Assembly (NCBI GenBank): GCA_050740695.1
Contig: JBOIDR010000001.1
Coordinates: 6,762 to 70,761 of the forward strand
Length of the DNA stretch: 64,000 nucleotides
Direction of reading: 5' to 3'
DNA from: Gammaproteobacteria bacterium
GTDB taxonomy: Bacteria > Pseudomonadota > Gammaproteobacteria > JACCXJ01
Position numbers and translations under genes: made by a program. Position 1 is the first letter of the stretch. Each line of letters begins with the position of its first letter. Below the pieces are notes generated by a model. That model saw only the letters and a program-made list of their open reading frames with translations, had not been told where the DNA came from and searched no databases. This document shows, piece by piece, positions 6,249-59,903 of the stretch.

Positions 6249-6500
6249 ATGCCGATTGCAACTCTTCGCAGTGTGGGCGGTTCGGTTGTCATGGCCATCC
6301 CTAAGCGCATACTGGATTTGGTGCATTTGCGATCCGGTTCGCAAGTGAATATCGATGCCCAGGACGGGAAACTGATCGTTGCGCCCAAGAAAAAACCACG
6401 CTACACCCCCTCACCGAACTGATGGCGCAGTGCGACCTATCGCAGCTTATGAGCACCGAAGAAAGGGAATGGCTTGACACACCTGCCGTCGAATGCCCGG
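6249..6500 (+). pseudogene. PemI/Kis-like (MazE superfamily, AbrB/SpoVT fold) antitoxin, frameshifted
   Basis: Own translation from ATG 6249: MPIATLRSVGGSVVMAIPKRILDLVHLRSGSQVNIDAQDGKLIVAPKKKPRYTPSPN*, stop at 6420..6422. The expected continuation ..LTELMAQCDLSQLMSTEEREWLDTPAV.. lies in another frame (ORF 6422..). The break maps to the C5 run at 6406..6410. From memory, the C-terminus parallels plasmid PemI/Kis (..PQYSLAELLAQCD..EEREWLDAPA..). Confidence 0.65.
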
Positions 6501-6687
6501 CCGGGGCGAGATTTGGCACGTTAATCTCGGGGCCGATCGGTGTTGGCAGTGGAGCGGGCGTAGGGCGCGTCTCCGCGCCGACTCATTCGCTGGAGCAGAC
6601 AGCAGTGCCTCTATCATAAACGGATGGTCATACGAACTGTTCCGATCGCTTCCCGCAGGGCGGACCGTGAGAAACGTTAGGCGCTGA
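6493..6687 (+). pseudogene. PemK/Kid/MazF-like toxin remnant (decayed, frame-broken)
   Basis: MPGRGEIWHVNLG.. matches the ..RGEIW.V.L.P..G.E..G.RP.. N-terminus of PemK/MazF toxins. Downstream similarity is split between two frames and then fades, and the reading frame is too short for an intact toxin. Confidence 0.45.
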
Positions 6688-6751
6688 TCGGTGTAGGCGG
6701 TGGAGAATAAGTGCTACCCGGAACATGGGCGCGACGATCATCAGGCGTGAC
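6555..6751. repeat. Copy A of an imperfect ~200-bp direct repeat flanking the hicBA cassette
   Basis: Aligns by eye with 7299..7513: gcgggcg[t/c]agggcgcgt.tccgcgc.gactcattcgct.gagcagaca...gcctctatcataaacggatggtcata.gaactgt ... gggcgcgacgatcatcaggcgtgac. There are several indels. Confidence 0.7.
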
Positions 6752-6827
6752 AGAATCATACCGCGAATGATAGGCGCGGACACGCGCCCTACGTTTGCTC
6801 TACTCGTCGTACACTTGGAGGCTGGTT

Positions 6828-7037
6828 ATGAGAGTTTATTCTGCGGTAATAGAGCGTTGTCCCTACACGGGACTGTTCGTCGGTTTTGTTCCTGGTTTTG
6901 CGGGCGCGCACTCCCAAGGGGAGACGCTCGATGAGGTCAATCGTAACCTTCAAGAAGTCATAACGATGCTTCTTGAAGATGGAGAGCCTCAGCTTGAGTC
7001 CGAGTTTGTGGGGATTCAGAACGTCGCCATTGCGTAG
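6828..7037 (+). CDS. hicB: HicB-family antitoxin (UPF0150)
   Basis: MRVYSAVIERCPYTGLFVGFVPGFAGAHSQGETLDEVNRNLQEVITMLLEDGEP. Start set at ATG 6828, behind a GGAG at 6817..6820. It lies 2 nt upstream of hicA. Confidence 0.8.
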   Translation: MRVYSAVIERCPYTGLFVGFVPGFAGAHSQGETLDEVNRNLQEVITMLLEDGEPQLESEFVGIQNVAIA

Positions 7038-7039
7038 GC

Positions 7040-7264
7040 ATGGGCAACATACCAACTCTCAAGCCGGCAGAGGTCGTCGCCATTCTTCTGAAGCTCGGTT
7101 TCACGGAGGTCAGGCACCGTGGCTCACACAAGCAGTTTCGTGACGGTACGGGGCGATGCACCACCGTACCGTTTCATCAGGGCCGGGATGTGTCTCCTAT
7201 CTTGCTCAGGCAAATTGCCAAGGACGTAGCACTTACTGTCGATGACTTACTCAAGTACCGTTAG
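7040..7264 (+). CDS. hicA: HicA-family mRNA interferase toxin
   Basis: 74 aa, LKPAEVVAILLKLGFTEVRHRGSHKQFRDGTGRCTTVPFHQGRDVSPILLRQIAKD. This is the YcfA/HicA signature with G-SH. Confidence 0.85.
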   Translation: MGNIPTLKPAEVVAILLKLGFTEVRHRGSHKQFRDGTGRCTTVPFHQGRDVSPILLRQIAKDVALTVDDLLKYR

Positions 7265-7298
7265 CCCAACAAGGTGCTACACCGGACGGCACAAAAAT

Positions 7299-7513
7299 GC
7301 GGGCGCAGGGCGCGTGTCCGCGCTGACTCATTCGCTCGAGCAGACAACAATGCCTCTATCATAAACGGATGGTCATAGGAACTGTCCAAATCGCTTTCCG
7401 CTGGGCAGACCGCATATTGGAGTGCGCGAAAAACAATTGGTGCCAATCGGTGATCGGTGTTGAGGGTGGAGAAATAAGCGCTACCCATGGGCGCGACGAT
7501 CATCAGGCGTGAC
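7299..7513. repeat. Copy B of the ~200-bp direct repeat; its end overlaps the stop codon of the GT4 gene
   Basis: See copy A. Both copies end in ...gatcatcaggcgtgac, and in copy B this includes the stop and last codons of the 7503..8603 gene. Confidence 0.7.
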
Positions 7514-8603
7514 TGATATAGGAGGCGACCAGGGACCGCAGAAAATTACGAGCGCACTCGAAAGACTGGTGCCAGGTGGGGTGACGTGCCGCCCTTCGCC
7601 GAGCGGCGAGCCCCATCCGCAGCAAGAGCTCACGGTCCGCGACCAAGAGCCGGAGGGGGCGGGTAAGGGCATCGGCGTCACCCGGCGCCACCAGGAAGCC
7701 CTCGCGGCCGTGCTCGACGATCTCGTGCGCGCCCCCGGCCGTGGTGGCGATCACGGGCAACCCGAACCGCATCGCTTCGAGGTAGGCGATGCCCAAGGCC
7801 TCGTAATGCGAGGGTACAACCAGTAGGTGGCTGGTCATCAGGTACTCCGGGATCCGGGCGTTCGGCACCGTGCCCACCAGGCGCACGTTGGTCCCGAGAC
7901 CGGCGCGACCGATCAGACCCCGCAGGCGCTCGACATAGGGCCGGTCCATGGTCAAGCTGCCGACGATCTGTAAACGCCAACTGTCGGCGGGCAGGCGGCT
8001 CAGTGCGTCGATCAGGACGTGCAGGCCCTTGCCGGGGAGCACGTTGGCGATGCTGAGGACACAGAGGGGCCCCGTCGCTCGTGCCCGCGCCGCGAGCTCG
8101 GTTTCCGAGCGTTCCACGGCCAGATGGTCACCGCCCGGGTAGGCAACCACCCCGGGAAGCCCGTGCCCGAGGAGCGCTTCGACCGCCAGACGGGTCGTCT
8201 GGGAGTTGTAAAGGGCCGCATCGACAGTGGCCAGATATCGCCGTTCAGTCGCCGAGCACAAGCCACGGAGCCCCCTCGCCGTCTGCTCGCTCGAGCGCAA
8301 GAGGTGAACGATCGTGACGATCGGGTAGCGAGCCCTGGCCCTGAGCCAGCCGTTGAGGAATACCAGGGACGGATGGACGAGCTCATCCTGCAAGAGGACA
8401 TCGAAGCGCTCCCGAGTGAGCCGGCGAAGCAACGAAGGCGAGGCGTTGTCGGCGAGGGCGCGGGGATAGTGGTTGCGACTAGGGACGGAGATCACCTCGG
8501 CCCGATCTCCGCTTGACACGAGATGATCCAGCAACCTGCGGTCGTAGAGATAACCGCCGGTGAGGGTCTCGATGCTCCCGTAGATCACGAGGCCGACTCG
8601 CAT
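7503..8603 (-). CDS. Glycosyltransferase family 4 (Glycos_transf_1 type)
   Basis: Start trimmed to ATG 8603 (MRVGLVIYGSIETLTGGYLYDRRL...). The C-terminal half has the GT4 motif E..G....EAM..G.PVIAT..GG..EIV. It is the last gene of the ribA-led operon. Confidence 0.85.
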   Translation of the reverse strand: MRVGLVIYGSIETLTGGYLYDRRLLDHLVSSGDRAEVISVPSRNHYPRALADNASPSLLRRLTRERFDVLLQDELVHPSLVFLNGWLRARARYPIVTIVHLLRSSEQTARGLRGLCSATERRYLATVDAALYNSQTTRLAVEALLGHGLPGVVAYPGGDHLAVERSETELAARARATGPLCVLSIANVLPGKGLHVLIDALSRLPADSWRLQIVGSLTMDRPYVERLRGLIGRAGLGTNVRLVGTVPNARIPEYLMTSHLLVVPSHYEALGIAYLEAMRFGLPVIATTAGGAHEIVEHGREGFLVAPGDADALTRPLRLLVADRELLLRMGLAARRRAARHPTWHQSFECARNFLRSLVASYISHA

Positions 8604-8608
8604 CACGC

Positions 8609-9613
8609 TCAGTAGGTGAGCATCACCTGCACGGCCTCTTGCGGGCGCCGATCGAGCAGGTCGTAGGCCTCGTCCGCGCGGGACACGGGAAAACGATGGG
8701 TGATGAGGCGGGCGGGATCGATCTCGGCGAGCATCCGCCAGGCCACCTCCCGGCGGCGAGCTTTGCTCCAGCGTCCCGCAAAGCGGGAGGCGATGGTGCT
8801 GACTTGGCTGCTGATGAGGCGCATGCGACTGCGATGAAAGGACCCGCCCAGGCGCAGGTGGGCGGGCCGGTCGCCATACCACGACCCGATCACGACTCGG
8901 CCCTCGAAGCCGGTGACGGCGATGGCCTCGTCGAGAACGGCCGGGCTGCCGGAAAGCTCGTAGGTCAAATCACAAGACGAGCGCAAGCGCTCCAGCTCGC
9001 CGGCCGCTGCCGGGTCCACGACCCGATGCGCACCCAGGTCGAGCGAGCGCTCGCGCCGCAGGGGATGACGGTCCAAGGTCACCAGATCGGAGAGGGGGAT
9101 GCGCGCCAGCAACGCCGTGGTGAGCAGCCCCACCACACCCTGCCCGAACACCGCGACGTGCTCGCCGACGATCGGTTGGCCGTCCATCAGGAGGGTGACT
9201 GCCGTTTCGACGTTGGGCAGGAAGGCCGCGTCCTCGGGCGAGAGCCCGGCGGGAACGAGGACGAGCTCGGCAGGCCTGGTCAGAAAATGGCTCTCGTGCG
9301 GATGAAAGCCCATCACCAACTCTCCGAGCCACTCTCGGCCGACGCCCGCGCCCAAGGTCGTGATCCGACCCACGGCGGCGTAACCGTACTTGAGAGGGAA
9401 GGCGAACGCCTCGGCGAGGGCGGGGATGGACGAGTCGAGGGGCATGTCGGCCGGCACCCGGCCGCGATAGACCAGCATCTCGGTGCCCGGGCTGATCGCG
9501 GATACGACGGTCTCGACCACCACCTCTCCGGCGCCGGGCGGAGATAGTGGCTCTTCCCGCACCGCCACGCGGTGGGCTGCGACGAAGTACAGGGACCGTC
9601 TACAGGTGGTCAT
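8609..9613 (-). CDS. Medium-chain (zinc-type) dehydrogenase/reductase, BchC/threonine-dehydrogenase-like
   Basis: Start trimmed to ATG 9613 (MTTCRRSLYFVAAHRVAVREEPL...). Contains SAISPGTEMLVYRG, a Rossmann segment VAVFGQGVVGLL and a typical MDR length of 334 aa. Confidence 0.78.
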   Translation of the reverse strand: MTTCRRSLYFVAAHRVAVREEPLSPPGAGEVVVETVVSAISPGTEMLVYRGRVPADMPLDSSIPALAEAFAFPLKYGYAAVGRITTLGAGVGREWLGELVMGFHPHESHFLTRPAELVLVPAGLSPEDAAFLPNVETAVTLLMDGQPIVGEHVAVFGQGVVGLLTTALLARIPLSDLVTLDRHPLRRERSLDLGAHRVVDPAAAGELERLRSSCDLTYELSGSPAVLDEAIAVTGFEGRVVIGSWYGDRPAHLRLGGSFHRSRMRLISSQVSTIASRFAGRWSKARRREVAWRMLAEIDPARLITHRFPVSRADEAYDLLDRRPQEAVQVMLTY

Positions 9614-9617
9614 CGAC

Positions 9618-10652
9618 CTACAGGCGGCTATCGATAAACCGCGACAGGACCCGACGGGTCTCGCGTAGTGCGTACTTCCTGACCCACTCGGAAGCGTCGA
9701 TCCGAACGTCGTCGCAGAGCGCCCGGGCCGCGAGATCGACCACGGAGCCTCGCTTGCCGGTGATGTTGCCGTAAACGTTCGGCCGCAGATCCGCCTGCGC
9801 GAAGCCCCGGTAGTCGCCGTTGACGACACAGGTGGTACCGCACGCCATCGCCTCGATCAGCGCCAGGCCGAAGCTCTCCTTCGGCGAGGCCAGGACGCAG
9901 AGCCGTGCCCGGTGGCAGAGCAGGGCGATCTCCCGCGCCGAGCGCCAATTGGAGCTGGCGAGCGGCTGCCCCGGATCGATGCTCGAGACGACGCTGACAC
10001 CGTCGATGAACGGCTCCACCTCGTGGAAATAGTCCGGATCGGCGATACCTCCCGCCAGATAGAGCGGGAGTCCGTACTCTTCGAAGATCCGCTCCCGATA
10101 GCCTTCGCAAAGCTCGAGCTGGTGCTTGTCCGGATGGATCCTCCCCACGCTGAGCACCAACTCCTCGCCGCCTCGATCGGGCCCGGCTCGATCGGGCCCG
10201 GCTCGATCGGGCCCCGCTCGATCGGGATAGAACACCTCATCGTCGTAGGAACCGCCGACGATGAGCAGGTGCGGGTGCGGATCGTCACTGCGGTGGGACA
10301 GGATGCCACGGAAGAGCCCTTGGGGCACATCGGGGTGAGGATAGGTATCGGTGAGACAGAAGGAGGCTCGGGAACGAGCGAGATGTAGCGTGAACTCGGT
10401 CTCTTTGAATCCGATGAAAAGGACGAAAGCGAAATCGTGGGCGAGGAGACCAGAAACTTCCAGGTCGCCGGCCACGGGTTGATTGCCGAAATAGAGCCCC
10501 AGAGGGGCCCAGTCACCCGGACGGGTGAGGAGAAGATAGACCCTATCGGCGGGGAACAGGCGCGTCGAATAGTCGCTCACCAGTCGGGCGCAGCCATTGG
10601 TAACGACGGGGTACGGGCTCGCCGCGGAAACCAGCAAGACCCGCCGGGTCAC
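9618..10652 (-). CDS. Glycosyltransferase (GT4-like) with an internal DRAGP tandem repeat
   Basis: 344 aa. The C-terminal half reads SPKESFGLALIEAMACGTTCVV (GT4 E-x7-E region). The N-terminal half is a divergent Rossmann-like fold. There is a 4-nt overlap with the upstream gene. Confidence 0.7.
   Translation of the reverse strand: MTRRVLLVSAASPYPVVTNGCARLVSDYSTRLFPADRVYLLLTRPGDWAPLGLYFGNQPVAGDLEVSGLLAHDFAFVLFIGFKETEFTLHLARSRASFCLTDTYPHPDVPQGLFRGILSHRSDDPHPHLLIVGGSYDDEVFYPDRAGPDRAGPDRAGPDRGGEELVLSVGRIHPDKHQLELCEGYRERIFEEYGLPLYLAGGIADPDYFHEVEPFIDGVSVVSSIDPGQPLASSNWRSAREIALLCHRARLCVLASPKESFGLALIEAMACGTTCVVNGDYRGFAQADLRPNVYGNITGKRGSVVDLAARALCDDVRIDASEWVRKYALRETRRVLSRFIDSRL
10172..10227. repeat. 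In-frame 15-bp tandem repeat, about 3.7 copies (ctcgatcgggcccgg), encoding (DRAGP)n in the minus-strand GT gene
   Basis: Directly visible: ...cctcgatcgggcccggctcgatcgggcccggctcgatcgggccccgctcgatcggg... The protein shows PDRAGPDRAGPDRAGPDRGG. Confidence 0.9.
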
Positions 10653-11647
10653 GATGCGGCTCTTCCGACGAACAGCATGCCGTCACCGACCGACCGGTAG
10701 ACGTGGCTGTCGAAGCGCACCGACTCGGCGACGGACCGGATCGCCGGCTTTTGGAACGAACTGATCCCGGGGCCGATGATGAGCGGCGAGATGTGGAGTT
10801 GCAAGACATCGATGTTGCTCTCGGCGAGGAAAGCCGAGGTGGTGGTGGCGCCACCCTCGATATACACAGAGAGGATGTCGCGGCGGTAGAGCTCGCGGAG
10901 GATGGCAGTGGTGGCGATGCGCCCGTTGTCGGTCGGCAGCGCGAGGCGTTCGACCTGCGGCGACGCTGGTACCTGGCCCTCGCCGATCAAGAGGATACGA
11001 CCCGGGCCCGCCCGCGCGAGGCAGTCGATGTCGATATCGACGCCGCCGCCGACGACGATCCGGATCGGGTCCGACCCTTCGGCGTGGCGCACCGTCAGCG
11101 CCGGATGGTCCGTGCGCAAGGTGCGGGCGCCTATCAGGATGCCGTCGCAGAGGGCACGCATTCGGTGGGCGTGAACCAGGTTCTCCGCGCAGCCGATCCA
11201 CCGGGAGTCGCCGAGATCCGTGGCGATCCTGCCATCGAGCGATTGGGCGAAGTGACTGACGGTGAACGAACGCCGCATCCGCCGGGCGTGAACGGGCGCC
11301 ATGCAATAGGGCAGGTAGATCTCGAGCAGCGCCGCGGCGGCCGATGGCAGGGTGCCGTCGGTCAGCCTGCGCAGCACGATCAGATCGTCGAGCCGGTAGC
11401 GGCTTTCGCCTGGGCCCGCCGGCGGGCCGTTCGAGGCGGACTCGCCATCGAGCAAGAGAGAGACCCGCCAGCCGTCGCCCGCCGGGGGAGTGAGCGAGTC
11501 CAGGCACACCGCCGGAGCCTCCCCGATGAGCAGCGAGCAGCCACGGATCGGCGCGCCGTGGCCGCGGACCGTTTCTGCCAGGAGGGTCAAGGCGCGCCAA
11601 CAGGCTGCTGCCGCGTGGGTCTCGACGATCCCTTCCCGTGTCGTCAC
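10649..11647 (-). CDS. RibD C-terminal-domain (DHFR-fold) pyrimidine reductase-like protein with an unassigned ~125-aa N-terminal domain and no deaminase domain
   Basis: The C-terminal ~200 aa read FAQSLDGRIAT..SRWI....N..HAHRMRALCDGILIGARTLRTDHPALTVR ... YIEGGATTTSAFL...IDVLQLHISPLIIG, the RibD_C pattern. No [HC]AE..PCxxC deaminase zinc motif is present anywhere. Confidence 0.72.
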   Translation of the reverse strand: MTTREGIVETHAAAACWRALTLLAETVRGHGAPIRGCSLLIGEAPAVCLDSLTPPAGDGWRVSLLLDGESASNGPPAGPGESRYRLDDLIVLRRLTDGTLPSAAAALLEIYLPYCMAPVHARRMRRSFTVSHFAQSLDGRIATDLGDSRWIGCAENLVHAHRMRALCDGILIGARTLRTDHPALTVRHAEGSDPIRIVVGGGVDIDIDCLARAGPGRILLIGEGQVPASPQVERLALPTDNGRIATTAILRELYRRDILSVYIEGGATTTSAFLAESNIDVLQLHISPLIIGPGISSFQKPAIRSVAESVRFDSHVYRSVGDGMLFVGRAAS

Positions 11648-12240
11648 TGCCCGAGGTCCTCGAGGAGATGCCCCAGACGCAAGCGCTTGACCGCCAGGTA
11701 CCCGCGGTTGTGGTCCGTCGGTGGCACCACCAGAGGCACTCTGGCGACCATGCGGATCGACGAGCGCTCGACCGCACGGACTTTCGCCGGGTTATTGGTG
11801 AGCAGTCGTAGCGCGTTGACGCCCAGATCCTCGAGCATGGCGATGGCGGCCGAGTACTCGCGCTGATCGGCCCCGAACCCGAGGTGCAGGTTTGCCTCAA
11901 CGGTATCGAGCCCACCATCCTGCAGGCTGTAGGCGCGGAGCTTGTTGAGCAGACCGATCCCCCGCCCCTCTTGCCGCAGATAGATGAGCACCCCCGATCC
12001 CTCGAGTCCGATGGCCTGCAACGCGACTTCCAACTGGATCCCGCAGTCGCAGCGCTGAGACGAGAAGACGTCACCCGTCAGGCACTCGGAATGGATGCGC
12101 ACCAGCGGGGCGTCGAGACCTTCCACCGCTCCTTTCACCAGAGCGAGATGGAGGTACTGCGATCCGCTGTCCGTATAAGCGCGCAGCAGGAACTCACCGA
12201 AGTCGGTCGGCAGCCGCGTATCCACCGCTCTCGTCAACAT
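11644..12240 (-). CDS. ribA: GTP cyclohydrolase II
   Basis: 198 aa with VRIHSECLTGDVFSSQRCDCGIQL (zinc site), RQEGRGIGLLNKLRAYSLQD and LLTNNPAK. Monofunctional: no RibB domain. Confidence 0.9.
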   Translation of the reverse strand: MLTRAVDTRLPTDFGEFLLRAYTDSGSQYLHLALVKGAVEGLDAPLVRIHSECLTGDVFSSQRCDCGIQLEVALQAIGLEGSGVLIYLRQEGRGIGLLNKLRAYSLQDGGLDTVEANLHLGFGADQREYSAAIAMLEDLGVNALRLLTNNPAKVRAVERSSIRMVARVPLVVPPTDHNRGYLAVKRLRLGHLLEDLGQ

Positions 12241-12690
12241 GCCGGGGTAAATGTTCTTGGGCCACCTAAAGGTGGCGATTCAGCGCCAGAGGTTCAGAGA
12301 TTCAAGTCGCTGGTCCTCTCGCTCCTGGTGACGGATATACTCTCGGATCATCCCCTTATCACGACCCACCGTGGAGACGAAGTATCCCGCGAACCTTCGG
12401 AACACCTTTCCTAAGTGGCGCCGCAACTCCTCATGCAGCGTCTGACGACGGCACTTCGGGATGAACACCACGTGATATTTACACTCTCACTTCGAGTGGC
12501 TTAGGCTTTCATGCTCATCCATCGGGATTCTCCACAGTCGAGTGCTTGGCGGCTCAGGCATGGAGTTTCCCCGATGGACCCCCCTAAATGTCGAACTGCT
12601 ACTGCCTCCCCGGCAGAGCCGGGGGTTTTCCCAGGATAATAAGCAGGAATAGGGCGGTCAGGAACAGCGAACGAAAGATGTGTCGAGAGA
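12241..12690 (-). mobile_element. Remnant of an IS200-type insertion sequence (ends approximate)
   Basis: Contains the decayed tnpA. The hairpin gccacctaaaggtggc lies at about 12261..12276. A stem tccatcggg/cccgatgga overlaps the tnpA start region. The hairpin ccccggc-aga-gccgggg at 12608..12624 resembles IS200 end structures. By eye this patch is less GC-rich than its flanks. Confidence 0.5.
12280..12522 (-). pseudogene. tnpA: IS200/IS605-family Y1 transposase TnpA, with an in-frame stop and an internal deletion
   Basis: Own translation from ATG 12522: MDEHESLSHSK*ECKYHVVFIPKCRRQTLHEELRRHLGKVFRRFAGYFVSTVGRDKGMIREYIRHQEREDQRLESLNLWR. The N-terminal (KYH.VF.PKYRR) and C-terminal (RGYFVSTVG.DE..IR.YI..QE) TnpA blocks are joined directly. 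The central HUH/Tyr-bearing part is missing, and TGA replaces the conserved Trp codon. Confidence 0.75.
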
Positions 12691-13041
12691 ATCGTGTCGC
12701 TTCCATGGGTCGCCTGGCTTGGCAATTATCATCACAGCCCAATTTTATCGATGTATCCGTATGCGAAAAGGTCATCCCCCGTTTCTACGTCGAGGTTTTC
12801 ACCTAGCATTTCGCCTTGAACCACGTTGCTTGCATCAGGTACCCGCGGTACATGGTGACATCGCATATCTGATGCGACGGTCCGTCACCCTCCAACGGTG
12901 CGGGATCTTGCACCGTGCAAGGGCAAGACGCTTCCCCGAGTCCCTTTCGCGACCCTACACGGTTTCCACGGCAGCGTCAACGATTCCTGTTATTGCATCG
13001 CCGCAAGGAAGGCCGGCTGCCGCCGACGGCGGCCAGTCAAG

Positions 13042-13557
13042 TCAACCGCCTCGCTCCTTCCGTTCCAGCGCCTCCAATCGTTCCGTCACCTCTGCCAGCG
13101 CCGCTTGGATCTCGACGAGCTTGCGATAGGCCTTCACGTTGACCTCGTAATCGAGCTCGGCGCGTTGGTCCTGGTAGGTGTTCTGGCGGTTCTGGCTGAT
13201 GAGGACAAAGCTGGTGATCAAGATCGCCTCGATGGCGAGGATGATCCCGAGGAGGCTGTAGGGATAGGCGTCGAAGACGACGCCGGCGACGATGGCTCCG
13301 GAGTTCAGGATCACCCAGGCGAGGAACCAGAGGACATGTACCGTGACGAAGTGCGGGCGGCCTGTGAAGGCCGTGACCTTATCGGCCAGACGTTCCAGGA
13401 AGGTGCTCTGCGCCGCCAGCTCTTCGATCACATAGCGAAACTCGCCGAGCGCCTTGTGGCATTCGCCGTTGCCGCAGAAGACCGCATCGGCGGGATTCTC
13501 GCCGTTGCAGTCGGGGCAGATGATGGGTGCCGGCGCAGCTTGCACGCCCATGTTCAT
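13042..13557 (-). CDS. DUF1003 membrane protein with an N-terminal zinc-ribbon
   Basis: 171 aa with CPDCNGEN....FCGNGECHK, two TM helices and SQNRQ......RAELDYEVN.KA, the DUF1003 signature. Confidence 0.72.
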   Translation of the reverse strand: MNMGVQAAPAPIICPDCNGENPADAVFCGNGECHKALGEFRYVIEELAAQSTFLERLADKVTAFTGRPHFVTVHVLWFLAWVILNSGAIVAGVVFDAYPYSLLGIILAIEAILITSFVLISQNRQNTYQDQRAELDYEVNVKAYRKLVEIQAALAEVTERLEALERKERGG

Positions 13558-14192
13558 TTCTCCGCGATGACCAATCGCATTTCAACCGGCGCATGCCCTG
13601 CGAGCACCGCTCGCAGGGCATCCACAAAACGTAGGTACAGCGACGTAGGCCTTCGGAGGCCTGCGGGGCGCAGTCCCGCAAACAGCGTTGTCCTCAAACC
13701 ATAGCTCAGCTCCAACTGCACGCCGCGACCCGAGACACAGCGGTTGCAGATGTTCGATGGCGAACGCCCCTGGCGGGTCGGGCTCGGGTCGTCGACTGCC
13801 AGGAATCCGGCACTGATCAGGGCCTCGGCGATGCGCTCGCGCAGCACGAAGTCGAGCCCGCCGAGATAAACCGCGGGCTGCCGGCCCTTCGCGCCATGGA
13901 TCGTGATCAAGGCCCGTACCCCGCGCACGAGCCGGAGTGCTTGCGGTTCGTCGAAACGATTGCTGCTCAGGTGCAGGACGTGATTACCGACGGATTTCAA
14001 TCCTTCGAAGGCGTAAAAACCGTGCTCCCGGCCTGCGATACCATCGGCCACCTCCGAGGTGCCGCGCTCGATGCCACCGCCGTGTGGCGCCACGATAGCG
14101 ACACCCGAGCCCCCCATCCGCCAGCGGATGCGGTAGTCGCGGCCTTCGCGCTCACGGCGGCTCAGCTGAGTGAAGTTGGTGTAGAGATCCAT
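13554..14192 (-). CDS. Poly-gamma-glutamate hydrolase family protein (DUF867/UPF0714, YjqB-like, phage-related)
   Basis: Start trimmed to ATG 14192 (MDLYTNFTQL...). Contains VAIVAPHGGGIERGTSEVADGIA, FEGLKSVGNHVLHLSSNRFDEP, LITIHG and VYLGGLD. There is a 4-nt overlap with the DUF1003 gene. Confidence 0.7.
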   Translation of the reverse strand: MDLYTNFTQLSRREREGRDYRIRWRMGGSGVAIVAPHGGGIERGTSEVADGIAGREHGFYAFEGLKSVGNHVLHLSSNRFDEPQALRLVRGVRALITIHGAKGRQPAVYLGGLDFVLRERIAEALISAGFLAVDDPSPTRQGRSPSNICNRCVSGRGVQLELSYGLRTTLFAGLRPAGLRRPTSLYLRFVDALRAVLAGHAPVEMRLVIAEK

Positions 14193-14230
14193 CGTGGGTG
14201 GAAAGAAAATACGACGCAGGGCGCACACCG

Positions 14231-14478
14231 GGTTGGCGGGTTACGGCGCAGACCGCGCGCCTAACCCACCCACATTTAATGACCTTGCTTTCGGCGACAC
14301 GCTACGCGGTCCTCCACACGGCCCAGAGATAGAGCTTGTAGGATGGGTAGAGCACAGCGAAACCCATCATCCGGCCGCGGCTGTGATGAGTTTCGGCTAT
14401 CGCCCTCTACCCATCCTACGTTTAATGACCTTGCTTTCGGCGACACGCTACCGGGTTTCCCACACGGCCCAGAGATAG
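14231..14478. repeat. Composite repeat: degenerate REP, then a 60-bp unit, then an 82-bp REP pair (15-bp perfect inverted ends), then the 60-bp unit again
   Basis: The 60-bp direct repeat lies at 14272..14331 and 14418..14478 (a[c/.]tttaatgaccttgctttcggcgacacgctac..gg...cc.cacggcccagagata). The second copy encodes the C-terminus of the Nramp gene. The inverted arms are gtaggatgggtagag (14338..14352) and ctctacccatcctac (14405..14419). Confidence 0.85.
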
Positions 14479-15878
14479 GCCAGCGCCAGCGCGAAGTAAG
14501 CCAGGAACGAGACGAGCAACAAGATCCCCGACCAGGACCCCGGCCTGGCCCAGACTGGCAACTCGGGGGCAAGCAGGCGGTGGTTCAAGAAATACAGGGC
14601 TACCGGAAAGATCACCGTGCCCCCGAAGCCGATGAGCGCGCTCGTCACGATCAAGGGTCCGGGGGCGTCGAGGAGCATGGTGAACGAAGTAATGACCGTC
14701 AAGAGCGCGAGGAAAAAGAAATACCAGTGGCGTGTTTCAATTCGCCGGGCGCGCGGGAACAGCACCTGGACGATGTCGGCTTGCATGCGGCTCACGGCAT
14801 CCGCGGTCGCGAGCCAGGTGTCCGTGAGGAACGCCGCCGCGACCACCAGGAACAGCACCCGTCCCACCTCGCCCCAGCCGGCCTCGAAGAAGCGGCTCTG
14901 CACCACCGCCAGCTCGTAATCCTCGGGCAGGAGGCCTTTGGGAAACAGGAGGGCATAGGCGAGCAGGCAGGTCATGAGGGTCGTGAGCAGGTTGCCGCCG
15001 ATCCCGATGAGGACATCCGAGCACAGGAACCGGCGCCACCGCCGCCAGCGCCGCGCCGTCTCGGGCTCCGCCTCCGGTAGATAGCCGTCGCTCGTCACGG
15101 GCTCGGGTCGGCCGAAAAGCGGCCCGGTGATGCGCCCGACGTGGGCGGCCATGCCGCTGCCCTTTTCGCGCAACCAATAGGAATAGAACAAGACCCAGAA
15201 TCCCCCGAGACCGGCGAAGGTGATCGCGGTCAAGAGCTTGGCGGCATCGGCCATCTCCCAGGGCCGCGGCAGCGGGCCCACCGGTCCCGCAAGACCGCGC
15301 GCGAATGCCGGGGCCGTCGCCGTCACCTCTGGTTCCAGGCAGGCCCACAGCAAGCCCGCGACCGTCACCACCGCGACCAGTTTCATTAAACTCTCGATCA
15401 AGACATAGACGACCTTGCTGAGCAAGATGGCGATCACGAATACGAAGATGGAGGCATACCCCCAGAAGAGCGTCTGGCCGCGCGCGCTCCATCCGTCCGG
15501 GAAGTGCGTCAAGGCCGCGAGCGCCGTACCCCCGGCCGACGCGAAGGCGCCGAACCATAAGAACGACAGGCTCATGAGCACCCACAAAAACACCCCGAGG
15601 CCGCGGTTCAAGCGGAGGAAGCCGTGGAAGATGCTCTCTCCGGTCAAGAGCGTGTAGCGCCCGATCTCGAAGTTCAAGGGGAACTGCAGGAGGCAGGCGG
15701 GGATGAGGAGGCACAGGAACGTGAGCCCATACTTGGCAATAATATAGGGCCACCAGATCAGCTCACCGCTGCCCTGGGCGAGCGCCATCCAAACGATACC
15801 CGGTCCGAGTGCCGCGATGAAACCGGGAAAGGGCGGCAGGGGCCGGCGCTCCAGACGGAACGCCCCGCCATCCGTCAT
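14448..15878 (-). CDS. Nramp-family divalent metal cation transporter-like membrane protein
   Basis: 476 aa with about 11 hydrophobic segments. The N-terminus GPGIVWMALAQGSGELIWWPY resembles the Nramp DPGN/GSG region. Confidence 0.75.
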   Translation of the reverse strand: MTDGGAFRLERRPLPPFPGFIAALGPGIVWMALAQGSGELIWWPYIIAKYGLTFLCLLIPACLLQFPLNFEIGRYTLLTGESIFHGFLRLNRGLGVFLWVLMSLSFLWFGAFASAGGTALAALTHFPDGWSARGQTLFWGYASIFVFVIAILLSKVVYVLIESLMKLVAVVTVAGLLWACLEPEVTATAPAFARGLAGPVGPLPRPWEMADAAKLLTAITFAGLGGFWVLFYSYWLREKGSGMAAHVGRITGPLFGRPEPVTSDGYLPEAEPETARRWRRWRRFLCSDVLIGIGGNLLTTLMTCLLAYALLFPKGLLPEDYELAVVQSRFFEAGWGEVGRVLFLVVAAAFLTDTWLATADAVSRMQADIVQVLFPRARRIETRHWYFFFLALLTVITSFTMLLDAPGPLIVTSALIGFGGTVIFPVALYFLNHRLLAPELPVWARPGSWSGILLLVSFLAYFALALAYLWAVWETR

Positions 15879-15908
15879 GGCCCTCCGCTCGTCATTGCCC
15901 TCCCTCCA

Positions 15909-16535
15909 TCATTTGCCGTCCGGCGGTGCCGAACGCCGCCAGGGTTCGAGCCTTTCGATCCCAGCGTACCAGCGGCGGATCTCGCCGTAGGGCTCGATGG
16001 GGTAGCCCGCGATCGTCGTGAGGCAGAGGGGCGCACCGACCGAATAGTCGGCCAAGGTCACCCCGTCTCCGCAGAGCCACGCGCGGCCCTCGAGACATCC
16101 GTTCAGGACCTTCGCGAAGCGATGGAAGCGCAGCTCGCCCTTCATGATCTCGGCGGGATCGGCATCGCCCTGCCCGATGGCCTTCTTGACCAGACGCTCG
16201 TAGATAAAGACCCCGCACGCGGCACCAAAATGGGCGAGCCCCCAAGACTGCCAACGGCTGATATCGGCCTGGGCCTTCGGGTCCGCGGGCCAAAGCCGAT
16301 TGCCGGGCCGCTTGGAGCAGAGATACTGCATGATTGCGTTCGACTCCCAGAGCACGAAGTCGCCATCGAGCAAGGTCGGGATCATATGATTGGGGTTGAG
16401 CGCCACGAACTCCGGCCGCATTTGCTCGCCCTGGAAGAGATCGACGGGCACGAGCTCGCAATCGAGATCGAGGTGGTGGATTACCGCGAGGGCCCGGCGG
16501 GAATTGGGAGAGGGCGGGAAGTGGTAGAGCTTCAT
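15909..16535 (-). CDS. Glutathione S-transferase family protein
   Basis: Start trimmed to ATG 16535 (MKLYHFPPSPNSRRA...), behind a GGAGG. It has an N-terminal thioredoxin-like fold (IPTLLDGDFVLWESNAIMQYL) and a C-terminal helical domain. Confidence 0.85.
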   Translation of the reverse strand: MKLYHFPPSPNSRRALAVIHHLDLDCELVPVDLFQGEQMRPEFVALNPNHMIPTLLDGDFVLWESNAIMQYLCSKRPGNRLWPADPKAQADISRWQSWGLAHFGAACGVFIYERLVKKAIGQGDADPAEIMKGELRFHRFAKVLNGCLEGRAWLCGDGVTLADYSVGAPLCLTTIAGYPIEPYGEIRRWYAGIERLEPWRRSAPPDGK

Positions 16536-16774: not shown

Positions 16775-17185
16775 TCAATCCACCCAATCTTCCACCCGCA
16801 AGCCTTGGATCCGCTGAAACTCCCGCAAGTTGTGGGTGACGAGCGTGGCGTTTTCGGATAGCGCGTGGCAGGCGATCCACAGGTCGTTGGCGCCGATGGG
16901 GGTGCCCACCTCCTTGAGGCGTACGAATTGAACCGCGTAGTGTTCGCAGAGCGCGCGGCGCGTGTCGTAGAGCACGGGGATTTCTCGGGTCAGGCGGTCG
17001 AGCCGGCGCAGCACCTGCGCTCTGCGCGCGCTGCGCTCGGCGCCTTTGAGCAATTCGGCAAAGGTGAAGAAGGACATGCACAGCACTGCATCGTTCGCCA
17101 GCGCATTGATGCGCTTCGCCACCGACGGCGGTTTGTTCTTGATGAGGTAGATGAGGGTGTTGGTGTCCAGCATGTAGCTGGTCAC
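16775..17185 (-). CDS. vapC: PIN-domain ribonuclease toxin VapC
   Basis: 136 aa with MLDTNTLIYLIKNKP, FAEL and THNLREF. There is a 4-nt overlap with vapB. Confidence 0.9.
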   Translation of the reverse strand: MTSYMLDTNTLIYLIKNKPPSVAKRINALANDAVLCMSFFTFAELLKGAERSARRAQVLRRLDRLTREIPVLYDTRRALCEHYAVQFVRLKEVGTPIGANDLWIACHALSENATLVTHNLREFQRIQGLRVEDWVD

Positions 17186-17436
17186 AGGTCCTCCCGCTCC
17201 TGCAAGGCGGGCTGGCTCGCGCAGTCCTCCTCCAGCAGCGCGGTGAAGTCGTCGTCGAAGGCTGAAAGCGCTTGCAGCAGTGCCGCGCCCCGATCGGTCA
17301 GCAAGGGGTGAATAATGAGATCGCCCTGCTCGTTCCGGGTGATGGCGACACGGCTGGCGTCAAGGTGGAACTCCTGCGGAATCCGCACCGCTTGGCTATT
17401 GCCGTTCTGGAAGGTGCGGCTGATCAATGTCGTCAT
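17182..17436 (-). CDS. vapB: AbrB/SpoVT-type antitoxin VapB
   Basis: Start trimmed to ATG 17436 (MTTLISRTFQNGNSQAVRIPQEF...). Confidence 0.85.
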   Translation of the reverse strand: MTTLISRTFQNGNSQAVRIPQEFHLDASRVAITRNEQGDLIIHPLLTDRGAALLQALSAFDDDFTALLEEDCASQPALQEREDL

Positions 17437-31749: not shown

Positions 31750-32196
31750 CTATTGCTTCCCCAACATCGCCAGGCCATAGGCCCCGAGCGTCGCGGCATA
31801 GGCGATAAAAAGCGGCCCCACCGCCACGGCCTCGTACTCGAGGAACGTCACGACGAAAAGACCGAGGGTAACCCCGAACTTGACCAGCTCCGCCAGGACT
31901 TGCGCGCCGAGCAGCCCGCCCGGCGACAGCCCTTTTGTTCGCGCGACACACAAGGCCGCGGCCGCGGTCGCCGCGATCCCGATGCCGCCACCGCAGAGCG
32001 CCGAGAGCGCAAAGCGGAGCTGGTAGATCACACAAACCAGCGCCACCGCCGCCGTCACGCCGATCTGGAGGACGAGGAGTCTCTGTATGTCCCTGTCCAA
32101 CCTACCCCGCGATGCGGCAGCGCGCCATGCTAGTGTAAGTGCCGATACCGAGTCAACTCGCTTCCCGCCGAGCCGAGACTGCCGGCCCGCCTTCAC
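31750..32196 (-). CDS. atpI: ATP synthase protein I (start uncertain)
   Basis: Small polytopic membrane protein directly upstream of atpB. The track ORF starts at TTG 32244, but that would overlap the preceding gene by 20 nt. An in-frame GTG at 32196 is used here. A later TTG is also possible. Confidence 0.55.
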   Translation of the reverse strand: MKAGRQSRLGGKRVDSVSALTLAWRAAASRGRLDRDIQRLLVLQIGVTAAVALVCVIYQLRFALSALCGGGIGIAATAAAALCVARTKGLSPGGLLGAQVLAELVKFGVTLGLFVVTFLEYEAVAVGPLFIAYAATLGAYGLAMLGKQ

Positions 32197-32224
32197 TAAC
32201 CACTGCCGAGGGCTCGGGTGCGCG

Positions 32225-32734
32225 TCAGGTGAACCAGAACGCAAGCTGAACGGCCAGCCACACCACGGTGGCGGCGACGAAACCGGTGGCAGCGCGCCGC
32301 GTCCACAGGTACTTCTTCTGCACGATCTTGGCGTTGACGTGCACCTGGGTCAAAACCTGGTCGAGCGCGTCCTCGACCGAGAGGCCCATGAACGCCCGCA
32401 CATAATCGGCCGGCTCCATCCCGTGTATGTCGCCAAAATAAAAGAGTGAGCGCTTGGCGACCGGGTGATGCGTGAGGCGCGGACGAAGTGCGAGGACCGC
32501 CGAGATCAAGGAGAATGCGAGCGTAGCCAGGAGCACCCAATAGGCGATCGAGGGGATCAGGTGCTCTTCCGACTTGAGCTGGGAAAACGCCTGCTGTCCG
32601 GTCAAGGTCAGCGCGGCGACAAAGATCGCGGAGCCCGCGAAGAGCGCGCGGATCTTCTCGTCCGTGGCGCGGATCTGGGCGTGCAGGTTATCCAGGATCT
32701 GGACGGCGAGCCGCAACGCCTCGGCATTCGACAT
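32225..32734 (-). CDS. DUF5706 / Pycsar-effector-like three-TM membrane protein (assignment from memory of the family pattern)
   Basis: Start at ATG 32734 (MSNAEALRLAVQILDNLHAQIRATDEKIRALFAGSAIFVAAL...); an alternative ATG is at 32761. The layout is an amphipathic N-helix with a ..H..I...D.K motif, two TM helices, LRPR......S.F.FG.I....EY, then ..Q......I...KY......A plus a third TM helix. Confidence 0.45.
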   Translation of the reverse strand: MSNAEALRLAVQILDNLHAQIRATDEKIRALFAGSAIFVAALTLTGQQAFSQLKSEEHLIPSIAYWVLLATLAFSLISAVLALRPRLTHHPVAKRSLFYFGDIHGMEPADYVRAFMGLSVEDALDQVLTQVHVNAKIVQKKYLWTRRAATGFVAATVVWLAVQLAFWFT

Positions 32735-32841
32735 TGTCCCGGTCCGCTGCCCGGGCTCCATGACGGAAACCGGGTGCGGGGCCGAGGTGTCCTTGCGAGC
32801 ACCCCGTCCGGCCGGCGAGGCGCGCATGCCGGTACGCCTGG

Positions 32842-35112: not shown

Positions 35113-35178
35113 GGAGGGCGCCTGATCCTGATTCTGACCGGAGTACTGTCGATCACGGTCCCGGGCGTATTCCGGATC

Positions 35179-35655
35179 TCAGCCACACCTCGTGGTGAAG
35201 TCGAAGGTGGTACGGACGTTCGATCCCACGAGTTCGGTGTCGGCGGTCACCGTGAGATCGGCTAAGGTGGAGGTGCTCCGGACGATGTCACCGCCGAGGT
35301 TAACCGGAGAGCCGAAACCTCCAGCCGAGCCGTTGCTCAGGACCCATGTGTCGCCATTGGGGAAGACGACGAGCGGGTCGACAGACCAGGTTGCCTCTTC
35401 GGCCGCGGCGATATCGGTGTAGCGAAAGTACCCGTTGAAGGGGACCAGGCCGTTGTTCGCCTCTCCGCCGTTGACCTCTACCGAAGTCGTCGGATCCGAC
35501 AGGATCACCGGGCTCGCCGGCACGAGACCCGGGCTGAGACACATGCAGAACGCTACTCCGATCCAGCGGAGCGAGGGTGGCCTCGGCTGCCGAGGAGGGC
35601 GGGGTACGGCCCTCTGGTGACGGTGCGGTTCGGCTTCAAAGCTCTTGCTCCTCAT
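35179..35655 (-). CDS. Hypothetical small exported protein (beta-rich, Gly/Asn/Thr-rich)
   Basis: Start trimmed to ATG 35655 (MRSKSFEAEPHRH...). It has a basic N-region plus the hydrophobic segment WIGVAFCMCLSPGLVPASP. No recognisable family. Co-directional with, and 66 nt upstream of, the WD40 gene. Confidence 0.45.
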   Translation of the reverse strand: MRSKSFEAEPHRHQRAVPRPPRQPRPPSLRWIGVAFCMCLSPGLVPASPVILSDPTTSVEVNGGEANNGLVPFNGYFRYTDIAAAEEATWSVDPLVVFPNGDTWVLSNGSAGGFGSPVNLGGDIVRSTSTLADLTVTADTELVGSNVRTTFDFTTRCG

Positions 35656-35875
35656 GGTTCCGTCCGTCCTCCACTTAAAGGTTCCTGTTAGGGAGTGTAA
35701 AGGGTACGCCCGCACGGGGTAAAGTCGCTGCGGATGCGCCTGGCCCCCACCCTACCCCTCCCCCGCTAGGCGCAGGGGAGGGAACCCAGGGAACCCCGGC
35801 GCCCCCGTCCCAGCGCCAATCGAGCATCCGGCCGGCCAGGTTGCAAGACCACGAGATACTTCCTATCCTTCAGCC

Positions 35876-36322
35876 ATGCAAGTAGCCAAGAAAACCTACG
35901 AGCAAGACTTTCAGGCCTGGGCGCTAGAGAACGCGGTGCTCTTGCGCCAAGGAAGACTGGCCGACATCGACGCGCTCCATATCGCCGAGGAGCTCGAAAG
36001 CATGGGCGCGAGTGAACGCCGTGAGCTGCAAAGCCGCTTACGGGTGCTGGCGCTCCATCTGCTCAAATATCAGTACCAGCCGGAGTGCCGCGGGAAGAGC
36101 TGGCTCCTGACCATAGGCCATCAAAGAGACGCCATCGATAGCCTGTTGAAACAGTCCCCGAGTTTGCGTCCGCTCCTGGATGACGCGGAGGAAATGGCGG
36201 ACATCTACGCCAAGGCGCTCCGGGATGCGGTGATCGAGACCGAGCTGGACCGCCACCTCTTCCCGGTGAGATGCCCATACGCCATCGACCAGCTCCTCGA
36301 TGGCGATTTTCTTCCGGATTGA
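35876..36322 (+). CDS. DUF29 domain-containing protein
   Basis: 148 aa with YEQDFQAWALENAVLLRQGRLADIDALHIAEELESMGASERRELQSRL, the canonical DUF29 opening. Confidence 0.85.
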   Translation: MQVAKKTYEQDFQAWALENAVLLRQGRLADIDALHIAEELESMGASERRELQSRLRVLALHLLKYQYQPECRGKSWLLTIGHQRDAIDSLLKQSPSLRPLLDDAEEMADIYAKALRDAVIETELDRHLFPVRCPYAIDQLLDGDFLPD

Positions 36323-36345
36323 GTCCCTGGCCAAAATACCCGCAG

Positions 36346-36410
36346 CCCGGATGTAGCGCAGCGGGATCCGGGGAGGCCGTCCCGGTGCACTTCGTTTCAT
36401 CCGGGCTACG
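36346..36410. repeat. REP-like inverted pair (cccggatgtagcgcagcgggatccggg ... catccgggctacg)
   Basis: Same GTAGC..GG family as 16612..16768. Confidence 0.6.
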
Positions 36411-36418
36411 GCAGCCGG

Positions 36419-36733
<315 letters not shown>

Positions 36734-41122: not shown

Positions 41123-41295
41123 CGCGCGCTAAGATACAAGATACGGTAGCGAGCGTACAGGGATCCCCAAGTCCAGGCTCGGGCCGATGCAAATCCGGTA
41201 ATTGATTGAATGGTAACGATAACATGAGTCCTCTTCCAGACCTTTCGAGACCCGTGGCGGGTGCTAAGACCCTAGGCGGCGAGGTGCCGGAGGCG

Positions 41296-58974: not shown

Positions 58975-59021
58975 GTCTTAGCCTCATCGTGTTATTAGGT
59001 TCGGGTTTCTCGGACTGCGGC

Positions 59022-59765: not shown

Positions 59766-59868
59766 TGATAGATGCCTCCTCGTTTTATCGATTTATGGTA
59801 GCGCGGCAGCGAGAGAGCCTCTGCGCCGGGCACCAGCAACCGTCCCCTTTCTTTGGGGGTCGGTAGAA

Positions 59869-59903
59869 CCGGCCGTTGATTGATGTCATCGCACAACGGC
59901 CGG
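59869..59903 (-). other. 10-bp-stem hairpin in the pmoC-pmoA spacer
   Basis: ccggccgttg (59869..59878) pairs with caacggccgg (59894..59903) around a 15-nt loop, inside the 228-bp untranslated spacer. Confidence 0.5.

Follow-up and report, generated by a model that had tools for sequence, protein, structure and literature searches.

A conserved operon with a probable role in GTP-derived specialised metabolism

We investigated a 64-kb stretch of contig JBOIDR010000001.1 from a gammaproteobacterial genome assembly (GCA_050740695.1), referred to below as the window (all 64,000 nucleotides analysed), which contains five intact open reading frames (ORFs) on the minus strand at positions 7503-12240. 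In order, these encode a ribA-like GTP cyclohydrolase II (GCH II), a RibD_C-like pyrimidine reductase, a divergent GT-B glycosyltransferase that we denote GTx, a medium-chain dehydrogenase/reductase (MDR) and a second glycosyltransferase, of the GT4 type. This cluster is a real, conserved and uncharacterised form of GTP-derived specialised metabolism. We consider it somewhat probable that the operon is the working five-gene core of a widespread, uncharacterised pathway that leads from GTP to a specialised metabolite and is distinct from riboflavin synthesis; the product would most plausibly be a glycosylated 2-amino-pyrimidine, with a neopterin-type pterin glycoside as the foremost candidate. 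The first-pass annotation, made from the nucleotide sequence, had proposed a dedicated, non-housekeeping module built from GCH II and a deaminase-less reductase, in which the intermediate is reduced, not deaminated, and then glycosylated or oxidised. The first part of this proposal stands, given that the genes form a conserved unit, that neither a riboswitch nor other rib genes were found in the window, and that homology to relatives is bounded by the operon; for the second part, the chemistry is putative.

The five genes are tightly packed. The ribA/reductase and reductase/GTx junctions are GTGA stop/start overlaps (11647-11644 and 10652-10649), and gaps of 4 nt (9614-9617) and 5 nt (8604-8608) separate GTx from the MDR gene and the MDR gene from the GT4 gene, respectively. 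These calls reproduce the gene order, the two 4-nt overlaps and the two gaps of the first-pass annotation, and each of its domain assignments was matched in profile searches against Pfam and NCBIfam. The GC content of the operon (0.63-0.69) is like that of the genome, GC-poor sequence being confined to the flanks. As had been stated, no flavin mononucleotide (FMN) riboswitch was found, with zero Rfam families reaching the gathering score over the whole window, and the nearby absence of ribB, ribH and ribE also held: neither their domains nor any rib, fol or PTPS genes were seen among the approximately 48 window ORFs scanned.

The gene set recurs as a unit across phyla

Searching with the reductase as query yielded 913 scored homologues, the best 120 of which, shorter fragments aside, share an architecture of 310-350 amino acids (aa); many sources annotate such proteins as ‘diaminohydroxyphosphoribosylaminopyrimidine deaminase’. 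In a survey of one genome per GTDB species (~185,000 species), the reductase family was present in 169 species representatives from at least eight phyla. The carriers include gammaproteobacterial metagenome-assembled genomes, Solirubrobacterales and other Actinobacteria, Acidobacteriota (Thermoanaerobaculia, Holophagae), Candidatus Entotheonella, Bacteroidota (Cyclobacteriaceae, Saprospiraceae and Flammeovirgaceae, among them the cultured Phaeodactylibacter xiamenensis), Aminicenantes, Fidelibacterota and Planctomycetota. Complete genomes with the core include OY969474.1, OY969586.1, OZ245814.1 and that of P. xiamenensis KD52.

Gene neighbourhoods were compared, using tblastn and de novo clustering, for the 80 best loci of the reductase family (designated by L numbers). 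The MDR gene directly follows the reductase gene in 75 of the 80 loci and GCH II directly precedes it in 56, and a PTPS-family gene is found nearby in 55. Less frequent neighbours are GT4 (25 loci by tblastn, 49 by de novo clustering), a CMAS-type methyltransferase (21 loci) and GTx (12 loci), the last confined to a subfamily from Gammaproteobacteria, Actinobacteria and Holophagae and always inserted between the reductase and MDR genes. The gene order of the window operon is found again in Gammaproteobacteria, Solirubrobacterales and Holophagae. This recurrence goes far beyond chance assembly.

The PTPS-like partner encoded in the other phyla matches the Streptomyces coelicolor SCO6650 structure (3d7j) at E 3e-37. 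It carries an FGPAQ or FGPA signature in 45 of the 55 cases and lacks the HGH zinc motif, and the glutamate that anchors the substrate in T-fold proteins is invariant, which fits a substrate with a 2-amino-4-oxo ring. FGPAQ is the signature of PTPS-IV, in the neighbourhood of which PF00925 and PF01872 domains have already been recorded (PMC5445326). The Actinobacteria/Holophagae subfamily, which is closest to the window, encodes a further diverged PTPS-like type without FGPAQ.

Around these genes, the loci differ between lineages. Those of Solirubrobacterales are extended by genes for a methyltransferase, YdjC, a PTPS-like protein, sulfotransferases and a HAD hydrolase, often together with APS kinase and a multicopper oxidase. 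In Bacteroidota, the additions are two methyltransferases, one of them of the FkbM type, along with DUF2797, a CDP-alcohol phosphatidyltransferase and a sulfatase-fold membrane protein. Taken together, the lineage-variable tailoring genes and the counts above identify the deep core of the family as GCH II, the RibD_C-like reductase, the MDR and PTPS-IV (SCO6650-type), with glycosylation and other decorations being variable.

At four Bacteroidota and Fidelibacterota loci (L032 at 13395-16440, L037, L030 and L072), DUF2797 and the FkbM methyltransferase precede the core, and the CDP-alcohol phosphatidyltransferase and an LtaS/EptA-like sulfatase-fold membrane protein follow it. The gene content in these two phyla hints at a product that is possibly lipid-linked or envelope-bound. 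Across most of the subfamily with >60% identity (Gammaproteobacteria, Acidobacteriota, Actinobacteria), a multicopper oxidase gene adjoins the cluster, usually directly upstream of GCH II (Table 1); the product is a possible substrate of this enzyme, for example in an oxidative coupling. In the window, the usual position of the oxidase gene is occupied by an IS200 remnant, and no oxidase gene is present there.

Enzymes encoded by the operon

The ribA-like product matches GTP_cyclohydro2 (PF00925; E 3.4e-63) and, with 248.9 bits, exceeds the 205.85 cutoff of TIGR00505. It keeps both features that the first-pass annotation had singled out, namely the zinc site, with cysteines C53, C64 and C66 in HSECLTGDVFSSQRCDCG, and the tyrosine (Tyr104) of the RAYSLQD motif; these residues correspond to C54, C65, C67 and Y105 of E. 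coli RibA. In RibA, this tyrosine separates full deformylation from formation of a formamidopyrimidine, and it is invariant in all 56 cluster-linked GCH II homologues. The equivalog-level score, the zinc cysteines and the tyrosine together suggest that the enzyme would convert GTP to 2,5-diamino-6-ribosylamino-4(3H)-pyrimidinone 5'-phosphate (DARPP).

In the reductase, the RibD_C domain (PF01872) spans aa 130-321 (E 1.7e-33; 116.5 bits against a cutoff of 24.1). Pfam and NCBIfam searches detected no deaminase domain and left aa 1-125 without any assignment, in agreement with the first-pass description of a deaminase-less enzyme with an unassigned N-domain of ~125 aa. The scores stay below the cutoffs of the models for bifunctional RibD (TIGR00326, 104.3 against 156.35 bits), TIGR00227 (118 against 150) and the archaeal reductase (TIGR01508, 75 against 186). 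The GxxTxxxDxPxLTVR and EGG motifs are kept, with T176, D180, P182, R187 and E264-G265-G266 invariant in 36 family members, and the motifs SHFAQ[ST]LDG and HAHRMRALC are likewise family-invariant. His132, also invariant in the family alignment, occupies what we take to be the position of RibD Lys151/152. The best relatives by sequence in the PDB are the Methanocaldococcus jannaschii DARPP reductase (2azn) and Thermotoga maritima RibD (E ~1e-30); 2azn, 6p8c and 4ha7 match at E 1e-30 to 1e-12, and the DHFR-like protein Rv2671 is far more distant from the RibD_C half (E 2e-5). By sequence, this half is thus nearest to genuine pyrimidine reductases, and a model of the full-length protein could be aligned to bifunctional RibD over ~380 columns.

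Structure prediction, which the first-pass annotation had suggested for the N-domain, gave a confident AlphaFold2 model of this domain alone (mean predicted local distance difference test score, 91), consisting of a long helix, five beta strands and two alpha helices, for which no recognisable deaminase fold was found in the PDB. Foldseek returned no PDB match better than E 0.45. W17, C37 and a YxPYC motif (Y111-x-P113-Y114-C115) are invariant, and a profile of the domain matched no more than 61 of 1.84 billion representative proteins, almost all of which combine the N-domain with RibD_C or are fragments of such proteins. We regard the N-domain as an orphan domain, private to this reductase family, with a confidently predicted fold. 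A decayed cytidine-deaminase fold, such as that of plant PyrR, was considered as the origin of this domain and rejected, given the lack of a PDB match and an order of strands and helices unlike that fold.

The MDR just passes the cutoff of ADH_zinc_N (PF00107; 33.4 against 31.8 bits). Among the NCBIfam models, BchC (TIGR01202) scores best, at 81.6 bits against a cutoff of 291.25, so that BchC, a 3-hydroxyethyl bacteriochlorophyllide dehydrogenase, is its nearest named relative and not its equivalog. The PDB relatives are polyol and secondary-alcohol dehydrogenases acting on butanediol, sorbitol, xylitol, arabinitol and idonate. An alignment of 70 MDR sequences revealed the invariant motifs S38-x-x-S41-x-G-T-E45, Y76-G-Y78, HPH and GxGxxG, and contained none of the catalytic Cys/His zinc ligands of zinc-dependent MDRs, in which a Cys lies in a GxCxSD-type motif and a His or Glu in GHE; these residues are replaced. 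The acidic residue that follows beta-2 (TLD or VVE) predicts an NAD-type cofactor site, and we read the protein as a predicted zinc-less, NAD+-type secondary-alcohol dehydrogenase.

The two glycosyltransferases differ in how well they are recognised. In the GT4 protein, both halves of the fold are matched (PF00534, E 2.5e-37, 128.5 bits; PF13439, E 8e-7, 29.7 bits), and the nearest NCBIfam models, EpsE, BshA and MshA, all remain below cutoff. In GTx, only the C-terminal half is matched (PF00534 at aa 238-285, E 4.9e-10, 39.7 bits; PF13692, E 1e-8), an E-x7-E motif was identified by eye, the N-terminal half is without assignment, and the PDB relatives are weak and of the BshA type. The inter-domain region of GTx harbours a tandem PDRAG repeat, with ~4 copies in the window and in L011, three in L007 and L012, fewer in L006, and none or one in Actinobacteria; over the gammaproteobacterial relatives, the number ranges from ~1 to 4.

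Proposed pathway and product

In the pathway that we propose, the RibD_C enzyme would use NADPH to reduce the ribosyl chain of DARPP to a ribityl chain without prior deamination, keeping the 2-amino group; the cluster contains no deaminase, and a separate reductase would be redundant for a deaminated substrate, which is handled by the bifunctional RibD of the host. A secondary alcohol of the ribityl chain would then be oxidised by the MDR with NAD+. If this oxidation took place at C2', the combination of NADPH-dependent reduction and NAD+-dependent oxidation would shift the carbonyl from C1' to C2', so that two redox steps would achieve what an Amadori rearrangement does, and the resulting ketone would close onto the 5-amino group, yielding 7,8-dihydroneopterin 3'-phosphate. 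A similar carbonyl shift by reduction and oxidation is carried out by aldose reductase and sorbitol dehydrogenase in the polyol pathway. Finally, the two GT-B glycosyltransferases would add one or two sugars. In the other phyla, the same core would act together with the PTPS-IV T-fold protein, and methyltransferases, YdjC deacetylase, sulfotransferases or the CDP-alcohol transferase would serve for tailoring.

A pterin glycoside would fit the T-fold partner with its glutamate anchor and the GT4 enzyme and, in Actinobacteria, the YdjC deacetylase. In its complete form, this proposal holds that GCH II, the reductase and the MDR constitute a route from GTP to 7,8-dihydroneopterin phosphate that is independent of GTP cyclohydrolase I (GCH I), with the glycosyltransferases then making a new pterin glycoside; we offer this version as a tentative one and on balance somewhat doubtful.

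Origin and state of the window copy

Nucleotide homology to six gammaproteobacterial relatives, as detected by blastn, extends from ~7526 to 12248, that is, over the operon, and ends there on both sides. The flanks of the cluster vary from one relative to the next. The five genes are contiguous in L006, in a different context (tpiA-secG), and four of the five are present in L007-L012; in these loci and in L005, a multicopper oxidase gene lies upstream and a PAS-GGDEF-EAL gene downstream. The window proteins share 60-78% amino acid identity with those of Solirubrobacteraceae at a synonymous divergence (dS) of ~1, indicative of inter-phylum transfer. The window copy looks like an actinobacterial-type cluster of which only the first five genes were transferred horizontally, and mobile DNA would later have trimmed it at both ends. 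Homologues of the accessory genes (methyltransferase, YdjC, APH-type kinase, PTPS, sulfotransferase, HAD, APS kinase and multicopper oxidase) were not found in the window by tblastn; when all accessory proteins of three extended clusters were used as queries, the five core genes alone were matched in the 64 kb. Since it has no PTPS-IV gene, the defining feature, the window copy is filed as a PTPS-less derivative of the family and not as a member of the PTPS-IV cluster type.

At the 5' end of the operon, the first-pass observation that an IS200 remnant abuts the ribA start was corroborated: the Y1_Tnp match is real, comprising a 63-aa ORF at 12280-12471 next to the hairpin GCCACCTTTAGGTGGC at 12261-12276. 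In an alignment with five relatives, homology starts ~6 nt before the ribA ATG, and the IS200 end replaces the native 5' region, including the ribosome-binding region and the purine-rich GGGGGCGA motif that lies upstream of ribA in the relatives and is missing in the window. At the 3' end, the C-terminal tail of GT4 departs from its homologues exactly at the second copy of a ~215-nt repeat, and blastn homology to L006 ends at 7526. The two copies of this repeat bracket a hicB/hicA pair (6795-7264), the HicB-like Pfam matches of which fall just below the curated cutoffs; together, they look like a small mobile or cassette-type element. Thus, of the ‘toxin-antitoxin debris’ and IS remnant between which the block had been placed, the IS remnant was confirmed, and the debris needs the correction that it includes a hicB/hicA pair with both ORFs complete.

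Compared with two gammaproteobacterial relatives (L006 and L007), ratios of nonsynonymous to synonymous substitution rates (dN/dS) are 0.08-0.34 across all five genes and 0.08-0.15 for the ribA-like gene. These low values indicate purifying selection on every gene and imply that the short five-gene form has been maintained by selection in the gammaproteobacterial lineage. It is the smallest natural version of the family and convenient for heterologous expression.

Weighing the alternatives

Several points weigh against our interpretation of the operon as a working pathway core with the product proposed above. The chemistry is read from the gene content, and the MDR could instead act on a sugar or as a reductase. 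No PTPS-IV was detected in the window by tblastn with three PTPS-like queries, and the closest relatives also have none within reach, so that the operon may yield a product unlike the one made by the wider family, or an incomplete one. Replacement of the purine-rich region by the IS200 end makes expression in the source genome uncertain. In L005, a 91% identical relative, the GTx and MDR genes (10997-13027) are split or truncated beside RNase H-like and IS66 genes, which suggests either decay, and hence dispensability, of the cluster or frameshifts from assembly or long reads. Finally, an unpublished remark that ties PTPS-IV to archaeal F420 synthesis (PMC5041015) would imply a deaminated, flavin-like branch in place of a pterin.

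Under that alternative, which we consider unlikely, the pathway would follow the archaeal and fungal sequence of reactions via 5-amino-6-ribitylamino-uracil phosphate to a glycosylated lumazine, flavin or deazaflavin-like compound, with deamination performed by PTPS-IV where present and by the host RibD in the window genome. Apart from the F420 remark, such a route draws on the fact that GCH II and RibD_C are riboflavin-pathway enzymes, on a reductase equally close to archaeal DARPP reductases and to bacterial RibD, and on a luciferase-like monooxygenase that adjoins the cluster in Entotheonella-type loci. However, across the 80 neighbourhoods there is no recurrent lumazine synthase, riboflavin synthase, RibB or CofG/H-like family, the window is devoid of the PTPS-IV to which deamination is assigned elsewhere, and the PTPS-like glutamate anchor, judged from established knowledge of the T-fold, suits a 2-amino-4-oxo ring over uracil. 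In addition, SCO6650 is reported in the paper on the 3d7j structure to have no metal site, so that it would be no obvious hydrolytic deaminase, which we likewise count against deamination.

It is quite unlikely that the operon is an expression-dead remnant in its source genome, a truncated piece of a bigger actinobacterial-type cluster from which nothing useful is made, even though the trimmed state of the window copy gives this view substance. Homology confined to 7526-12248, the IS200 end with its hairpin 6 nt from the ATG, loss of the upstream GGGGGCGA motif, the GT4 tail overwritten by the repeat element, the absence from the window of homologues of the tailoring and PTPS genes of extended clusters, and the cluster decay in L005 would all be expected of a remnant. 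No sigma-70-like promoter was found in 7000-13200 either, although the simple promoter and terminator scans were uninformative, the latter giving a single terminator-like site, intragenic and below shuffle expectation. Nevertheless, the five ORFs are intact and translationally coupled, the dN/dS values relative to L006 and L007 are low, and the same five-gene form exists in L006 in a different genomic context. Furthermore, the transposase has decayed to 63 aa with the operon still intact, suggesting selection after the insertion.

That ribA and ribD_C are riboflavin housekeeping genes placed by chance beside unrelated envelope glycosyltransferase genes is very improbable. In its favour, the RibA homologue does exceed the ribA equivalog-domain cutoff, and with no further rib genes seen in its 64 kb, the window alone cannot show redundancy. 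Against it, the reductase reaches neither the RibD cutoff (104 against 156 bits) nor that for the RibD C-terminal model (118 against 150 bits) and has no deaminase, its pairing with the MDR and GT genes persists across phyla and involves overlaps between stop and start codons, the family is sporadic (169 of ~185,000 species), its genomic position varies among relatives, one of which is decaying, and there is no FMN riboswitch. A dedicated pathway to a GTP-derived specialised metabolite is thus the reading that we favour.

Genomic surroundings of the operon

The wider surroundings are ordinary chromosome, including ubiB, ubiE, hslUV, ruvA, glmU, the atp operon and zipA. On the minus strand at 57715-60773 lies an operon for a copper membrane monooxygenase, complete and in C-A-B order (Pfam E 1e-107 to 1e-158; Table 1), and its A subunit scores higher with Methylococcus capsulatus PmoA (414 bits) than with AmoA (266 bits). 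Given the PmoA-type A subunit and the completeness of this operon, the host is probably a high-GC gammaproteobacterial methanotroph.

A second full-length GT4 gene (61604-62983, minus strand; Glyco_transf_4 and Glycos_transf_1, E 1e-32 to 1e-36) adjoins a CBS-domain gene; with ~30% identity to the GT4 family of the cluster, it is probably unrelated to the operon. Unrelated, too, is a HAD-family gene at 41206-41955 to the HAD of the extended clusters. Near the cluster, an ORF at 6249-6422 appears AbrB/MazE-like by eye, and a PIN-domain protein (Pfam) encoded at 16775-17359 represents a further toxin-antitoxin-type gene. The segment at ~31750-36700 contains no ORFs with genome-typical codon GC.

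Table 1. Features of the operon, its surroundings and related loci (window positions unless an L number is given)
Feature	Position	Strand	Remarks
ribA-like GTP cyclohydrolase II	11644..12240	-	198 aa
RibD_C-like stand-alone pyrimidine reductase	10649..11647	-	332 aa
Orphan N-domain of the reductase	11273-11647 (aa 1-125)	-	AlphaFold2, Foldseek, profile search
Divergent GT-B glycosyltransferase GTx	9618..10652	-	344 aa
15-nt in-frame tandem repeat inside GTx	10168..10226		PDRAG pentapeptide, ~4 units
Zinc-less BchC-like MDR dehydrogenase (predicted)	8609..9613	-	334 aa
GT4 retaining-type glycosyltransferase	7503..8603	-	366 aa
IS200/IS605 transposase remnant and terminal hairpin	12261..12471	-	Y1_Tnp, C-terminal end only, E 5.7e-5
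~215-nt repeat, copy 1	6548-6754		direct copy; 32-nt inverted-repeat arms 6548-6579 / 6773-6804
~215-nt repeat, copy 2	7299..7516		repeat search, 89-97% identity; covers last 4-5 GT4 codons and stop
AmoC-family subunit	59994-60773	-	Pfam
AmoA-family subunit	59022-59792	-	Pfam
Monooxygenase subunit B	57715-58977	-	Pfam
Multicopper oxidase adjoining the cluster	L001 4463-6415; L005 7068-9006; L007 755-1006		also in L011, L012, L014, L016, L018-L024

Significance and comparison with known systems

Flavins, folate, biopterin, queuosine and toxins such as toxoflavin all originate from pyrimidines and pterins made from GTP. The module described here has no assigned product and is present in at least 169 species, among them symbionts of sponges, Actinobacteria from soil, marine Bacteroidota and a probable methanotroph; its beginning resembles that of riboflavin synthesis, but it is tied to a dehydrogenase, a T-fold protein and glycosyltransferases. 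Solving the pathway would give functions to the PTPS-IV/SCO6650 family, whose structure 3d7j has no assigned function in the deposit or in the literature searched, to the orphan N-domain and to the zinc-less MDR clade, and would correct the widespread ‘deaminase’ annotation of these reductases. It might also reveal a second route to the pterin ring without GCH I, and the pterin reading, if true, would supply the substrate of the long-orphan PTPS-IV/SCO6650 family.

Our literature search found no characterised pathway with this gene set, in line with the first-pass assessment. The closest described system, itself without a known product, is the PTPS-IV/SCO6650 neighbourhood (COG0720 subfamily IV; SCO6650-6655), in which GCH II and RibD_C likewise stand beside a T-fold PTPS homologue (PMC5445326). 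Unlike that neighbourhood, the window has no PTPS-IV, and the two glycosyltransferases and the orphan N-domain of the reductase that it encodes have not been described. Moreover, the window GCH II keeps the tyrosine and should be a true GCH II, whereas SCO6655 was reportedly found by Spoonamore and Bandarian, in 2008, to have a methionine at this position and to make the formamidopyrimidine.

Other systems share individual elements with the operon. The archaeal and fungal order of riboflavin synthesis (MjaRED/ArfC, Rib7) and plant PyrR employ a stand-alone RibD_C reductase on a non-deaminated diaminopyrimidine, as is proposed for the operon, but the window reductase falls well short of the archaeal model (75 against 186 bits), possesses the orphan N-domain and is not accompanied by downstream riboflavin genes. 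From the riboflavin operon, the window operon differs by the absence of an FMN riboswitch and of ribB/ribH/ribE partners. Toxoflavin-type clusters (toxABCDE) and related azapteridines resemble the operon in diverting the riboflavin pathway through a dedicated GCH II and a RibD homologue. In these clusters, ToxE keeps its deaminase domain and acts alongside the methyltransferase ToxA, ToxC and ToxD, with neither a glycosyltransferase nor an MDR known; conversely, the window operon contains no ToxA-, ToxC- or ToxD-type genes, all five of its products belonging to other families.

Two comparisons bear on the proposed pterin product. Pterin glycosides, such as biopterin glucoside, cyanopterin, tepidopterin and solfapterin, are GTP-derived pterins decorated by GT-B enzymes, and their known biosynthetic routes start with GCH I and canonical PTPS. 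The PTPS-family protein, GT4 and deacetylase of the extended clusters would fit a glucosaminyl-neopterin-like product; to our knowledge, however, GCH II, a RibD_C reductase and an MDR are all absent from known pathways to pterin glycosides. In Chlamydia, RibA and TrpF provide a route that bypasses FolE and FolQ, in which DARPP is converted by an Amadori step to dihydroneopterin monophosphate (PMC4161248). This bypass likewise starts from DARPP, shifts the carbonyl to C2' and requires no GCH I, so that its net chemistry is that proposed here. However, a single promiscuous isomerase feeds folate synthesis in Chlamydia, whereas in the operon a two-enzyme NADPH/NAD+ relay would accomplish the same shift, and the genes downstream of it encode glycosyltransferases in place of folBKP.

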